Virus record (IMG/VR): IMGVR_UViG_2579778660_000005
Strand: one strand, 5' to 3'
Source of the DNA: a virus
Lineage: Duplodnaviria > Heunggongvirae > Uroviricota > Caudoviricetes
Length of the DNA stretch: 16,519 bases
The translations under genes and the position numbers were made by a program. The first letter of the stretch is position 1. Each line of letters opens with the position of its first letter. The notes beneath the pieces were generated by a model. The model was not told where the DNA came from. It was given only the letters and a program-made list of their open reading frames with translations, and ran no database searches. Shown here piece after piece: positions 1,285-10,419 of the stretch.

Positions 1285-2068
1285 AATTCACAGGTGTTTT
1301 TTCCCATCCTGTGGTTTCCTTGGCGTTTTCTAGGTTTTTTCAGATAGTTGCATTTTTTAAAAAGCATCCTAAGTTCGATCTCAGTGTCTATCTGGGGCCT
1401 ATTTCTGTCCCATATATGCCCCAAAAAGACTCCCCAACAGATAAGTAGTTTTTCATGGATTTACGCGTAAAATCAATAACGGCTGGAAATCATTCAATAC
1501 TCGCACTATCGAAAAATTTACCAGCCAACCGCAGCACGTTCTTGCATAAGGCGTGTCTGCGGTTTTTCAACTATTCAGATAAATCACTCCCATCACATTC
1601 ATTCCTCCGCATCAAAGGCATATAGGCTATATCACCTTGATATTTTTCTTCTTCAGATAAAAACTGTTATCTATGTATACTTTTAAACCCAATCCGTGTA
1701 GAGTCTCTGCATAAGATAGTTTGCAGTTGCCGCTTCAGCTTGCGCCATAAACCGCCTGATTTTTGCTGCCACCTGTTAGCATTCCTGTATACCTGAAACG
1801 ACAATGTTTATCTACGAACTTTAAGAACACCCAAGATAAAAATTGTCAACTATATCATATATAACACATTACTAATTCGAGGCTATATGAACAGCATACT
1901 GATAATCACTTCTCTCCTTATCATATTCAGCATTTTTAGTCATGCCCTAATAAAATTAGGGATTGGCATATCCAATAACCCAGACAAAACCGATGTATAA
2001 GCCAACATATCCTGAATCAGACATACAATATCGCAATGAAAATCAATAATATTTTAAGGAATATCTTC

Positions 2069-2302
2069 ATGAAATCAAAAGACACCCTAAAGTGGTTCCC
2101 TGCGCAGCTTCCTGAAGTAAGAATTATCCTAGGGGATGCTGTAGTGGAAGTAGCAAAACAGGGAAGACCTATCAATACCAGAACATTGCTTGATTACATT
2201 GAAGGAAACATAAAGAAAAAATCATGGCTGGATAACAAAGAATTATTACAAACAGCGATATCAGTTCTTAAAGACAACCAAAATTTAAATGGTAAAATGT
2301 AA
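2069..2302 (+). CDS. ydfK: YdfK/YnaE-family small protein (77 aa)
   Basis: ORF track gives 88 aa from 2036; internal ATG at 2069 is preceded by AAGGA at 2056..2060 and matches the remembered YdfK start MKSKDTLKWF. Confidence 0.7.
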   Translation: MKSKDTLKWFPAQLPEVRIILGDAVVEVAKQGRPINTRTLLDYIEGNIKKKSWLDNKELLQTAISVLKDNQNLNGKM

Positions 2303-2618
2303 TATAATAAACTTACTTTTTTATCATTTTTCCACTTTAACAACATTTTGCTCCACTTTTCCACGACCAAACAACTTGAAATCTGGTTAAAATAACACGC
2401 AACACTATTCTTCTTCCTTGAGTCCGCCCGGAACTCGAAAAACAAACCGAGTTAAAGCCATTTTTCACAAAATCGATTTTGGGTCTCACCAAAATTACGG
2501 GGTTGCATACGCATTCGTTTATTTTCGAACGTGTACATACAAATATGCACAAAAATAATCAAAATTATTTTCTGAGATGCATTATGATATGAACACCAAT
2601 TTCGTATAGAGTCTCACT

Positions 2619-3209
2619 ATGTCTCGAATTTTTGCTTACTGTCGGATATCAACGCTGGATCAGACCACCGAAAATCAACGCCGGGAAATCGAAAGTGCAG
2701 GTTTTAAAATCAAACCTCAGCAAATAATCGAAGAACACATTAGCGGCTCAGCAGCAACCAGTGAGCGTCCTGGTTTTAACCGGTTGCTTGCTCGCCTGAA
2801 ATGTGGTGATCAATTGATTGTGACAAAACTGGATCGCCTTGGTTGTAATGCAATGGATATCAGGAAAACAGTGGAACAACTGACCGAAACAGGTATCAGA
2901 GTGCATTGCTTAGCATTGGGGGGCATTGACCTGACCAGTCCAACAGGAAAAATGATGATGCAAGTAATTTCAGCAGTCGCTGAATTTGAACGAGACCTTT
3001 TACTTGAACGCACTCATTCCGGGATAGTAAGAGCCCGCGGCGCAGGGAAACGTTTTGGTCGACCACCTGTGTTAAATGAAGAACAGAAACAGGTGGTATT
3101 CGAACGAATTAAGTCAGGTGTAAGTATAAGTGCCATTGCCCGGGAATTCAAAACCTCGCGGCAAACCATTTTAAGAGCCAAAGCAAAACTTCAGACACCT
3201 GACATATAA
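2619..3209 (+). CDS. pinQ: Serine recombinase, Gin/Hin/Pin-family DNA invertase
   Basis: 196 aa; N-terminal catalytic motif YCRISTLDQ and C-terminal HTH region typical of Pin/Gin invertases. Confidence 0.93.
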
Positions 3210-3306
3210 AAAATAATCTCGGTGTGAGATGCTTTACGTCTTCCAAGCCCCCTTCCTTGCCGTAAATGGAAAGATACATCTAATTATAGAATTTATATGT
3301 TTTACC

Positions 3307-3882
3307 CTACGGCAGTGCTGGCCATTCAATATCCTGTGCAGTTGACGTATCAACACGGTTCAGCAATACCCGATACTTTTTCCATGCTTCCAGCAACGAG
3401 ATTTCTTCCTCCGTTGCAATTTCCAGATCTGCAGCATCCTGAAGCGGCGCAATATGCTCACTGGCTACCTGCATCAGGTTGTTTTTTGTTTCTTCCGCCT
3501 CCCGGATCCGGAACAGTTTTTCTGCTTCCGTATCCTTCACCCAGGCTGTGCCGTTCCACTTCTGAAACTCCCCTTCCGGCGATAACCAGGTAACATTTTC
3601 CGGTAACGGACCGAGTTCAGAAATAAATAACGCGTCCCCTGATGCCACGTCATAAACTGTTTTACCCCGATGGTCTTCAACAAGATGCCACGATGCCTCA
3701 TCACTGTTGAAAACAGCCACGAAGCCTGCCGGAATATCTGGCGGTGCAATATCGGTACTGTTTGCTGGCAGACCTGTATGAGGCGGAATATATGCGTCAC
3801 CTTCACCAATAAATTCATTAGTTCCGGCCAGCAGATTATAAATTTTTATGGTCTGTGGTTGTTCACTCATTCTGAATGCCAT
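3307..3882 (-). CDS. tfaQ: Tail fibre assembly protein (Tfa)
   Basis: 191 aa recalled as lambdoid Tfa; start ATG overlaps the stop of the upstream tail-fibre ORF (TAATG arrangement). Confidence 0.85.
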
Positions 3883-4796
3883 TATGCAAGCCTCACAATA
3901 TAGTTAAATGCGATGTTTTTGACGGTGTTTTCCGCGTTACCAGCAGCGTTAACGGTGATGGTGTGTCCATGTGAACCAATCGCAACGGAGTGCGTATGAG
4001 CACCAATACCGACAGTATGTGCGTGAGCACCTGCAGATGCAGCTGTGCCGCTGACACTATGAGTGTGCGCTCCTGCAGCACTTGTATTCACACTGGCCGC
4101 AGACACTACCTTATGTACTGACCCATTTTGTGACCACTGGCTGATTGCTGATGCGCCTGTGACACTATGAGTATGGTTTCCGGCACTTGCGGCTGTACCG
4201 CTCACACTGTGCGTATGCGCCCCGGTGTTATTCGTGGATTTAGTGCCGTAATCAAACGACGATGTGGTTTTCGTCCCCAAATCCGTACTGGATGCGCTGG
4301 CGCTGTGGGTGTGCGATTTAATGCCGTCCTGTTCCTGAGACAATACGGCCCGACCACTGGCAGGTTTGCCCTTAATCGTCCAGCCACGCATATCAGGGAT
4401 CACGCCTGACGGATAAGCGGCTGCAAGTTTCGGGTAAGCAGATTTGTCAAAAGTCTGCCCCTGCATCAGGGCATAACCAGACGGAACGGTATCTGATGGC
4501 CACGGGATTGGTGCACCGACTGGATAAAACTCTGCAGGAGGATGAGCCGAGGTGTAAAGCTGCGCCCACGGCGACCAGTTTGCGTCGGTCGTATCCCGTC
4601 GTGAACGAATAAATGCCGGAGCATGAGCACCGCTTGTACCACTCCAGCCGATGAGTAACTCACCTTCGCCAACGGCTGTCATCCCTTTCAGGTGAATGAT
4701 ATTTCCATACGCTGTTGGATATCCGTTGTTATACACCTCGTATAACTCAAGACCTGCTGCCCCCTGCGTATTGTCTGTCAGCGCGGCTAACCGCAC
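3882..4796 (-). CDS. stfQ: Side tail fibre protein, C-terminal receptor-binding fragment (GTG start at a deletion junction; N-terminal part missing)
   Basis: 304 aa rich in Gly/Ser/Thr with repeated [15 protein letters not shown] His-x-His motifs typical of tail-fibre tips; starts with GTG at 4796 directly after an in-frame TGA and overlapping the stop of the L fragment. Confidence 0.65.
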
Positions 4797-5338
4797 TCAT
4801 CACCGCGATAGGTCCAGGTGCAGGTGTTGGCCAGCATGATACGTCCCGGAAAAACAGCGCCGTCCGTTTCCGTCGGTGTGGACAACACAAAGGAGGCACT
4901 GACCGCACTCAGTTCGCTGCACTGCTCGATGCGCCAGCGGCTGATCACCTCCTGCTCCGGATCGGCGTCGCTGTTTCCGTTGACGAAGTTCACCGCATCC
5001 AGAAAACGGGCGTAAACCTTACGCCTGACCACCGTTCCGCCGACCAGACTCTGCAGGTCTTCCGCCATCCCGGTGACCATGCCGTGCAGGTTAGAAACCG
5101 TCAGTGTCGGACGGGCAGCACTGCCCTTGCCGTTCAGTTCAAATCCCGTCCCCTGAATGGGGTATGCCTGATACTGCCGCCCCTGCCAGGTAACCGGCTC
5201 ACCTTTTTCGTTCTGCTCATTACAGAAAAAATAACGTTCACCACCGACCTCTGTCAGATCGATTTCCCAGAGCACCACCTGGGCTGACTGAGTGAGGCGT
5301 GTCGTCTCATGATGTGTTTCCTGTGGAATATCCTGCAG
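4787..5338 (-). pseudogene. Tail tip protein L fragment (lambda gpL homolog lacking its ATG and about 50 C-terminal residues)
   Basis: Residues QDIPQETHH...VVLWEIDLTEVGGERYFFCNEQNEKGEPVTWQGRQYQ...[12 protein letters not shown] match remembered lambda L nearly residue for residue; CTG at 5336..5338 replaces the initiator; stop follows ECG. Confidence 0.8.
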
Positions 5339-5831
5339 CGCCCCTAAATTGCCGCGGGCCAGTTCACCTATCAGAACGCCTATCTCCTGGCGGGCTGCTG
5401 CACTTTTCAGACCCAGCGAATGCGTGGCTTTTCCTGCCTGCTCCATTTTGCGGATATACACTTCTGCAGCACTGCTTACCCCCAGCTGGGCTGCCTTAGC
5501 ACGAAGCAACTCAGAAGATGAAAGATTCAGGCGGGTTGACATCACTGGCCGGAATGAGTTGTGCCGTTTCCTGTTCGAACTTAAGACGCTCACGTTCAGA
5601 CTGATACCAGGCTTTGCGCTCATGCGCGTCCATTTCGCCTTCTGCAACCGGCGGTGGTAATGCCAGAAATGCCGACACAATATCAACCACCCGATAAAGC
5701 TTGAGGTTGCTTTCATGCCCCCCTGCAACGGGTAGATTTTGCAGCCTTGCCGCAGCAGTCTGGCGATGTACACCTGACAGTGCCGCCAGTTGACTGATAT
5801 TCAGCGTCAGATTTTTTAACTCTCGATCCAT
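5339..5831 (-). pseudogene. nohQ: Terminase small subunit, Nu1-like (NohA family), frameshifted near 5535 and continuing in frame into the L fragment
   Basis: 106-aa frame (5511..5831) resembles the lambda Nu1 N-terminus; a second frame open from about 5542 carries Nu1-like C-terminal similarity and runs without stop into L. Confidence 0.55.
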
Positions 5832-6002
5832 ACCCGCTCCAGAATGTTTTAAACATGCATCTTGCGAACAACTTTAGGCAAACGGTGTTAGTGATGAACA
5901 AAAAACAATCAAAATCGACACCATAAAAATAAAACCACTGTAATATCAATCTATTACAGTGGTGGTGATGACGAATGAAATTTCAAAAACTAGCCTTTTT
6001 CC

Positions 6003-6022
6003 GCGACGCTCCCGCCCCGTGG
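6003..6022 (-). other. cos-like site (cosN remnant)
   Basis: Minus-strand CACGGGGCGGGAGCGTCGCGGAAAAAGG resembles remembered lambda cosN ACGGGGCGGCGACCTCGCGGGTTTTCG; lies about 180 bp upstream of the Nu1-like start, as in lambda. Confidence 0.35.
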
Positions 6023-6383
6023 CAGGCCACCCCACCGGGAGGACCCGACAGCCTGACAACCGTGACGAGCATCTGAAACAGAGCTTTACATAATGGCATG
6101 GGGATAATTCAGAAGGACATCACAGCATGCCCACACAAATTAGTGTGAGTGTCCTGTTTCTTACTACGCGCAGGACTGACGAGCATGAGGGGAAAATACG
6201 AGAACCGAAATGCCTTATCTTCAGAAATGCAGCCAGCATCCGAACTGGACGATATTGTAAATTCACCTAAATACGAGGCATTGCTGTAGTTGAATTACAG
6301 TACTGTATTAGCCTGACAGTGACAGAATACGATATTGACTCTGTCACTTGTGAAATGGTCAGAATGGTTAGCAGTTATGGTGA

Positions 6384-6590
6384 TCAATCAACCACCAGGG
6401 AATAATCCTTCGTATTCTTATCGTGCTTCACTAACGCTGCCTCAATTGCCCTGAATGCTTCCAGAGATACTTGATGTTCTATACATGCAATTATAACATC
6501 CGGGTAACTCATCGAAATGGTGCTATTAAGCATAGTTTTTACACGAACCTGCTCCTGGGAGGGGGCCTCAGTACATTGATCTTTATGCAT
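6384..6590 (-). CDS. Hypothetical small protein (possibly YnfO-like); start uncertain
   Basis: 68-aa ORF divergent from ydfO across a 290-bp intergenic region; no recognised motif. Confidence 0.35.
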
Positions 6591-6775
6591 TTTATCGCTC
6601 CATGCGTTTGTTCTTCACTTGTCGCTAAAAATATAACTTCAAATCTTTGAGCGTGGAAGTGTGGAAGTCACTGCGCGTTGATCTTGCATACATCGGTCGT
6701 TTGTTTTCCCCCCTGGCATATCAGAAAAACCAGGTTTTATAGCGGAATCAATACTATGTATTTTCCACCTGACTT

Positions 6776-9444: not shown

Positions 9445-9840
9445 CTAACCTCGCATGTCAAAGCCAGATTTCTGAAAATCTCTGTAGACTTCCGGATTGT
9501 TGAAGGCCGGAAATTTGGCTTTATGAGCTGCGGACTTTATCGCTTCGCAATAGGCTTTATCACCGTTACTGGTAGATATTTTTAACGCCGTGCCATCCTG
9601 AGAGAATTCCATATGCAACCTGCATTTTTTCCCTTTCCAGTTATGCGGCTCATCAAGTTTGGCATTAATTGCAGCTCTGATTCCCCGCGCTTGCGCCCCC
9701 CATTCATCCTGATCATCCCAGCGTCCTGAACTGCAACTACCTGTAGCAGTAGTTTTGTGGCAATCTGAAGGGTGTAAAGGTGTGCATCCCGCAACAAAAC
9801 CGACCCAAAAAGTCAACATAACGATTTTCTTTAATCCCAC
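9445..9840 (-). CDS. Lipoprotein with diverged TolA domain III-like C-terminal domain (paralog 1)
   Basis: 131 aa; GTG start preceded by GGAG; signal peptide with lipobox VAGC; C-terminal part aligns with paralog 2 and with remembered TolA domain III. Confidence 0.75.
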   Translation of the reverse strand: MGLKKIVMLTFWVGFVAGCTPLHPSDCHKTTATGSCSSGRWDDQDEWGAQARGIRAAINAKLDEPHNWKGKKCRLHMEFSQDGTALKISTSNGDKAYCEAIKSAAHKAKFPAFNNPEVYRDFQKSGFDMRG

Positions 9841-9990: not shown

Positions 9991-10419
9991 TCAGGGTTTA
10001 AAATCCAGCACCCCATTTTGAAATACTTTATATACTTCCGGCGAAGGGGGGGCAGGTATATCAGCATTCTTTATCGCATTCATCGCTTCACGACATAAAT
10101 CGAGGTCTCCACTTTCTCTTTTAACCTCCAGTAGAAGGCCATTCGGGGCCATATGCATTCTCAGTGTACACTCTTTTCCTGAATACTTACTCGCATCCCC
10201 GAACTGTTTTTCGATGGCGCTCTTGATTTGATGGGCATACAGACGGATATCCTCACTAACATCAGAAGTACGTTCAGATGAACTCACATACTGTGTCTCT
10301 ATTGCTTTATCGGAGTAATATGATGTACGGTCATGATAATTTGTCGATACAGCATCAGTGCACCCGATAATAATCCCACTAATAATCAACGTAAGAATTG
10401 ATGCGCTACGAAAACCCAT
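9991..10419 (-). CDS. Lipoprotein with TolA domain III-like C-terminal domain (paralog 2)
   Basis: 142 aa; ATG preceded by GAGG; lipobox IIGC; C-terminal 86 aa (YAHQIKSAIEKQF...GKECTLRMHMAPNGLLLEVK...IPAPPSPEVYKVFQNGVLDFKP) about 60 percent identical by eye to the remembered E. coli TolA C-terminus. Confidence 0.8.
   Translation of the reverse strand: MGFRSASILTLIISGIIIGCTDAVSTNYHDRTSYYSDKAIETQYVSSSERTSDVSEDIRLYAHQIKSAIEKQFGDASKYSGKECTLRMHMAPNGLLLEVKRESGDLDLCREAMNAIKNADIPAPPSPEVYKVFQNGVLDFKP

Follow-up and report, generated by a model that had tools for sequence, protein, structure and literature searches.

Gene content and genomic context

The window, i.e. the whole stretch of DNA analyzed (16,519 nucleotides; Caudoviricetes, IMG/VR record IMGVR_UViG_2579778660_000005), encodes the MFS transporter ydfJ, a pinQ-type serine recombinase, the tail-fiber assembly chaperone tfa, a side tail fiber remnant (stf'), a truncated minor tail protein L (gpL'), a Nu1-like DUF1441 protein, a DUF1398 protein, a lysozyme, an antiterminator Q and a DUF968 protein (Table 1). 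An earlier note on this DNA had placed a His-x-His repeat array, within the C-terminal domain of a tail fiber, at 3900-4330; the longest open reading frame (ORF) over this interval is stf'. The start of tfa overlaps the stf' stop codon, and the gene is annotated tfaQ at similar E. coli loci. The recombinase gene, annotated pinQ in RefSeq E. coli, converges on tfa across a gap of ~97 bp; its product stays below the cut-off of all NCBIfam invertase and recombinase models. Upstream of stf', an ORF at 4787-5773 ends with the gpL part.

The gene order stf-tfa-(pin) is that of lambda (Ur-lambda) Stf/Tfa and of StfQ/TfaQ/PinQ in Qin, and the neighbors ydfJ, DUF1441/nohQ, DUF1398, lysozyme and antiterminator Q are likewise those of E. 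coli Qin. Positions 5537-6735 match another sequence of the comparison set (L002) at 96%. The DUF1441 fragment is another leftover of the late region of the prophage, and by its gene content the neighborhood as a whole is a Qin-type decayed cryptic prophage of E. coli at the ydfJ locus. In E. coli annotations, stf'-tfa-pin remnants of the Qin type are commonplace.

Table 1. Features of the stf' locus (positions refer to the window, aa numbering to the stf' product)
Feature	Position	Strand	Residues	Remarks
pinQ-type serine recombinase	2619..3209	+	196 aa	Pfam Resolvase, E = 2.5e-36, and HTH_7
tfa, tail-fiber assembly chaperone	3307..3882	-	191 aa	Pfam PF02413 Caudo_TAP, E = 3.6e-43
stf'	3882..4796	-	304 aa	ORF with GTG start; 5'-truncated remnant of a lambda-type side tail fiber (C-terminal third)
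Receptor-binding tip (collar, needle, head)	3885..4529	-	aa 90-304	homologous to T4 gp37 812-1026
Phage tail collar domain	4374..4529	-	aa 90-141	Pfam PF07484 Collar, E = 1.7e-12, aa 94-141
H-x-H array	3951..4313	-		seven motifs; Pfam PF03335 Phage_fiber
H-x-H 1, HTH	4305-4313	-	aa 162-164	gp37 H883/885 equivalent
H-x-H 2, HTH	4209-4217	-	aa 194-196	gp37 H915/917 equivalent
H-x-H 3, HTH	4167-4175	-	aa 208-210	gp37 H929/931 equivalent
Predicted head (receptor-contact) segment	4068..4166	-	aa 211-243	between H-x-H 3 and 4
H-x-H 4, HTH	4059-4067	-	aa 244-246	gp37 H966/968 equivalent
H-x-H 5, HAH	4017-4025	-	aa 258-260	gp37 H980/982 equivalent
H-x-H 6, HTH	3990-3998	-	aa 267-269	gp37 H989/991 equivalent
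H-x-H 7, HGH	3963-3971	-	aa 276-278	gp37 H998/1000 equivalent
gpL' (truncated minor tail protein L)	4787..5254	-		Pfam PF05100 positions 1-156 of 206, E = 3e-75; TIGR01600
Nu1/NohQ-like DUF1441 gene fragment	5511..5831	-		DUF1441 annotated at the same place in similar loci

The H-x-H array and the receptor-binding tip

The translated stf' contains seven H-x-H motifs, which span 3963-4313 and thus all lie inside the interval of the earlier note; the array is real, while the "at least five" copies counted there were an undercount. Two unit periods are present, one of 14 aa (three units) and one of 9 aa (three units: GAHAHTVGI, GAHTHSVAI and GSHGHTITV), and one 15-aa peptide occurs twice in exact form, at aa 192 and aa 242. 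The Pfam model PF03335 (a 14-residue "Phage tail fibre repeat") matches stf' in two stretches with 30.6 bits, above its curated gathering threshold of 20 bits. The H-x-H pattern is well above chance: shuffling of the whole protein with its composition kept gave a mean of 1.0 motifs, with seven or more in 2 of 100,000 shuffles, and shuffling of the C-terminal 149 aa alone gave a mean of 1.4, again with seven in 2 of 100,000.

In a phmmer search against all PDB chains, aa 90-304 of stf' matched residues 28-242 of 2XGF_A, the tip of gp37, a protein of the long tail fiber of T4 (E = 4.3e-89). The alignment runs over the whole length of the tip with no large gaps, and every one of the seven H-x-H motifs stands opposite one of the seven of gp37 (Table 1; gp37 numbering was calibrated on H929/H931 and neighboring tip residues listed in PMC6957217). 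The two tips are ~73% identical over 215 residues; they share the collar domain and the C-terminal 15-residue stretch, the columns of which are invariant in alignment A1, and in both cases the chaperone gene (gp38 or tfa) follows directly downstream. Identity to the lambda tip is 75% in alignment A1 and 68-75% overall. In an alignment of eight sequences, made up of stf' and the tips of T4, lambda and five further phages, identity to stf' ranges over 56-85%, and the columns of the histidines vary little or not at all.

The tips differ most between motifs 3 and 4. This segment, which aligns to gp37 932-965, is conserved less than any other part, being variable and indel-rich across the alignments; in stf' it is unlike the heads of both T4 and lambda, and its sequence is unrelated to that of T4. 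Unlike stf', lambda has eight H-x-H motifs; its head is longer, and it has one SFDYGTK unit and one HxHTVGIGA unit more. In contrast to gp37, a protein of a myovirus long tail fiber, stf' derives from a siphovirus-type side fiber (Stf).

The structure of the gp37/Stf H-x-H iron needle has been known since 2010 (Bartual et al. 2010, as cited in PMC6957217, PMC9659904 and PMC5221442). In the gp37 tip, six antiparallel strands form the needle, and the head is intertwined (PMC9659904); the needle holds seven iron atoms coordinated by these histidines; the iron-binding histidines, with H929/H931 named, are essential in gp37 (PMC6957217). The tip subdomain at 932-965 has been mapped by mutagenesis, and T4 host range is directly determined by the head that lies between motifs 3 and 4 and not by the motifs (PMC6957217).

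The stf' array is very probably the metal-binding needle of a receptor-binding tip of the T4 gp37/lambda Stf type, present here within a fiber-gene remnant. This bears out two claims of the earlier note: the assignment to a tail-fiber C-terminal domain, on which the 2XGF match and the Pfam Collar and Phage_fiber models agree, and the view that the motifs are of the kind that coordinates metal in T4 gp37-type tips, as all seven align with the gp37 iron ligands. Trimerization, metal binding and receptor binding would hold for the stf' tip by analogy with gp37, and iron is the presumed metal on the same ground. An AlphaFold2 monomer prediction for aa 90-304 (35 aligned homologs) gave a pLDDT of 54.7 and a pTM of 0.18 for a single chain of the expected obligate trimer, values that are low because the chain is expected to fold only as an intertwined, metal-bound trimer and that speak neither for nor against a fiber-like fold. 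The gp37-type H-x-H metal needle is an already known, ordinary element covered by Pfam. With the gp37/Stf needle and Qin-type remnants both known, the locus carries little weight as a discovery; its analysis sets the structural role of the H-x-H motifs apart from host-range determination, which belongs to the head segment.

Truncation of stf and the gpL'-stf' junction

Over residues 2-304, stf' shares 98.3% identity with Stf (966 aa) of Escherichia phage PhiR29_2, a complete phage; the matching part of that Stf is residues 664-966. Nothing of Stf upstream of residue 664 is left in the window, i.e. only the last 304 of ~966 codons remain, and both the N-terminal virion-attachment part and the shaft that belong to a full-length, functional stf are absent. 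With this loss, stf' is not a working fiber gene; it is a truncated, pseudogene-like tip from which no fiber can be built in situ, a point that the earlier note had missed. This is also the main difference from gp37, since stf' lacks anything upstream of these last 304 residues. The two genes differ at 11 codons, of which 6 are synonymous and 5 non-synonymous, numbers too small to reveal selection.

The DNA similarity to stf reaches position 4793 and then stops, whereas that to gpL extends down to 4788, so that the two overlap by 6 nt at the junction (4788-4793, CGGTTA). Such a microhomology is typical of illegitimate deletion. The genes gpL' and stf' are in different reading frames, and the gpL' frame is closed by a TAG made by the junction. 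A microhomology deletion has joined stf' out of frame to the truncated gpL gene. A search of 5,426 complete genomes of E. coli found the junction in none of them, and it sets the window apart from lambda and Qin.

A recombination site of an invertase was considered for the same position and rejected. The match to P1 Sv' has its start 214 nt within Sv', which means that the 5' end of stf' is not the equivalent of cix, and the local DNA bears no resemblance to a hix or cix site, the 6-nt microhomology being found instead.

The part of stf' upstream of the collar (aa 2-83, positions 4548-4793) shares 72% identity with an internal stretch of P1 Sv', which belongs to the invertible C segment, and ~49% with Vibrio phage tail fibers; these matches illustrate fiber mosaicism, independent of the gp37-type tip, and the P1 match shows the common mosaic relationship to invertible fibers. 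Many C-terminal stf fragments of E. coli are joined to unrelated prophage fragments (P0011, P0013, P0018, P0056, P0060, P0062, P0071, P0088 and P0091), with terminase GpA, a ClpP-like protease, a ParB-like protein, portal, tape measure and DUF977 among the fusion partners. The homology start points cluster at Stf residues ~659-665, 724, 742 and 753. The clusters probably reflect mosaic module boundaries, the starts chosen in ORF calling and independent deletions; a recombination hotspot is conceivable as well.

Unit number, DNA-level repeats and the adjacent invertase

Homologous tips carry 4-9 H-x-H motifs, the number being changed by in-register indels. Nine phage tips that were compared contain 4 to 8 motifs; among the best 120 database homologs, the 102 complete tips have mostly seven (82 tips), the others five (5 tips), six (8), eight (5) or nine (2). 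Both halves of the hairpin change together: an ascending series of n SSFDYGTKT-type units of 10 aa is paired with a descending run of n+2 units of the 9-aa type HxHTV(G/A)IG. Over 91 distinct gp37/Stf-type tips (L003-L010 and P0001-P0120; the region corresponding to 3951-4313 was compared), the pairs 0/2, 1/3 and 2/4 occur in 1, 73 and 12 distinct tips, respectively. In P0099 and P0107 the scripted count is 2/5, while a reading of the alignment gives 3/5, the middle ascending unit being variant. There are three exceptions to the n/n+2 rule, and at least one of them (P0010, where one motif has N in place of H) is suggestive of a point change or of a shifted spacing. The needle seems to lengthen or shorten by matched modules of up- and down-strands, with one metal site per step. 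If this coupling is real, needle length and the number of metal sites would be tuned in quantized steps by recombination between short repeats. For engineers of Stf/gp37 chimeras, the in-register change of units (4-9 motifs) may be of help.

One relative illustrates how units can be lost. Compared with the window, the Qin-type remnant L012 (1440-1905; Logan contig ERR3061932_142, protein P0091), in which stf' is fused to a tape-measure fragment and not to gpL', lacks exactly 150 nt corresponding to 4067-4216. The deletion ends in the GGNGCGCAYACNCAYAGTGT repeated in H-x-H units 2 and 4 and removes motif 3 together with the entire head, while its flanks are otherwise near-identical to the window; L012 is a single short-read contig, for which an assembly artifact is possible. 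The comparison suggests that H-x-H units can mediate slippage or illegitimate recombination, and that the event was destructive, the head having been lost and not altered.

The earlier note had gone further and regarded the DNA-level repeats as a likely substrate of recombination and host-range variation, in keeping with the adjacent Pin invertase. The H-x-H units would then be a recombination cassette that works with the recombinase. Such a cassette would account for the in-register indels among relatives and for the repeat at the ends of the L012 deletion. In T4, host range was widened by duplications in gene 37 (Tetart 1996, as reported in citing papers), and ancient stf exchanges have been ascribed to stf-associated invertases (PMC3945230). 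In the window, the serine recombinase gene is found ~100 bp from tfa. Reportedly, Tetart and colleagues found that these duplications end in conserved "His boxes"; a literature search gave no match on this point.

Nevertheless, the window holds no good substrate for homologous recombination. Tandem Repeats Finder reported no tandem repeat over 3800-4900, and a repeat search of the stf' region yielded a four-copy family of 40 nt with 60-75% identity. The longest exact direct repeat in stf' measures 13 nt, a length reached by 16% of synonymous-codon shuffles; it is too short for efficient homologous recombination and leaves slippage or illegitimate events. Between the two identical 15-aa units, 10 of the 15 codons differ, and 34 of the 45 nucleotides are identical, against 31.4 +/- 2.5 under the synonymous-shuffle null. 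As unit-to-unit identity is about that of the null, the units are similar in DNA only as far as the shared peptide forces them to be. The unit duplication appears to be old and to have been kept by selection on the peptide. The claim of repeats that recombine is thus weak for the window, and it has some support at the level of the family, where in-register indels and the L012 deletion are seen; that deletion, the sole clear repeat-mediated event, destroys the head instead of changing it.

The proposed link to the invertase was not supported. Invertases recombine inverted crossover sites of a specific kind; direct repeats in coding sequence are not their substrate. A search for inverted repeats in 1300-6400 gave at best 16-27 nt at 74-88%, none of them convincing as crossover sites. 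No hix/gix/cix core was found near the fiber gene: with one mismatch allowed, AAACCNNGGTTT matched only at 6726-6738, which is chance frequency. A tblastn search with Stf' and Tfa detected no second stf or tfa copy in the window besides the genes themselves. In Mu (G/Gin), P1 (C/Cin) and e14 (P/Pin), a serine recombinase gene likewise lies beside tail-fiber and chaperone genes; unlike these invertible segments, the window has neither inverted crossover sites flanking the genes nor a second Sv/U cassette. There is no invertible switch at stf'/tfa/pinQ, and a cassette for host-range variation is an unlikely explanation of the H-x-H units. The annotation can be settled as a truncated, pseudogene-like tip that is neither a working fiber nor an invertible switch.

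Proposed mechanism and present role

The working of the needle can be sketched from the homologous crystal structure. In an intact phage, three Stf chains would trimerize with the help of the Tfa chaperone encoded downstream. Each chain would leave the collar, run up the needle with motifs 1-3, form a small head that touches the receptor, and return down the needle with motifs 4-7, so that the up and down strands of the three chains would make up a six-stranded antiparallel needle. On every level, the three chains would each contribute their copy of one H-x-H motif, giving six histidines in octahedral arrangement about one metal ion on the three-fold axis. With one ion per level, seven motifs would mean seven ions (iron in gp37), which would rivet the fiber together, and specificity would be set for the most part by the variable head that separates motif 3 from motif 4.

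For the remnant itself, the present role is most likely passive, with tip and chaperone serving as a sequence store that infecting lambdoid phages could draw on by homologous recombination. Recombination between Ur-lambda and the stf/tfa region of Qin occurs at ~2e-6 (PMC3945230), which makes such a donor role of stf'/tfa the most plausible present function.

Alternatively, the truncated tip might still be made alongside Tfa, with its own GTG as the start codon, and serve the host, e.g. as a free trimeric needle that masks an outer-membrane receptor against incoming phages. Expression from the GTG at 4796 is conceivable, as the 304-codon reading frame is intact and an intact tfa overlaps its stop codon, and remnants of tip, tfa and pinQ with varied upstream partners are kept in many E. 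coli genomes. Their persistence across E. coli would be explained by a needle of benefit to the host. However, no recognizable ribosome-binding site precedes the GTG and promoter evidence is lacking; retention is equally well explained by a position at the end of a prophage whose interior was deleted; relatives decay further, as in the L012 head deletion; and the 11 codon differences from the gene of a live phage are too few for a signal of selection. A use by the host is therefore very unlikely, and so is a free iron-riveted needle that masks the receptor from gp37/Stf-type phages. The least tenable reading sees no structural meaning in the H-x-H motifs and puts them down to chance or to the low complexity of a sequence rich in Gly, Ser, Thr, Ala and His: compatible as it is with the simple composition of the array region and with the low confidence of the monomer prediction, it is refuted by the composition-preserving shuffles, by motif columns kept across Escherichia, Klebsiella and Yersinia phages, and by the alignment of the stf' motifs with the metal ligands of a solved PDB structure, and its probability is negligible.

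Other genes of the prophage

Apart from the fiber region, two adjacent ORFs of the prophage on the minus strand (9445-9840 and 9991-10419, encoding 131 and 142 aa) each contain a C-terminal domain of TolA (Pfam PF06519; E = 1e-14 and 2e-23, respectively). Judging from these domain matches, such prophage-borne mimics of TolA-III could interfere with the entry of Tol-dependent phages or colicins.
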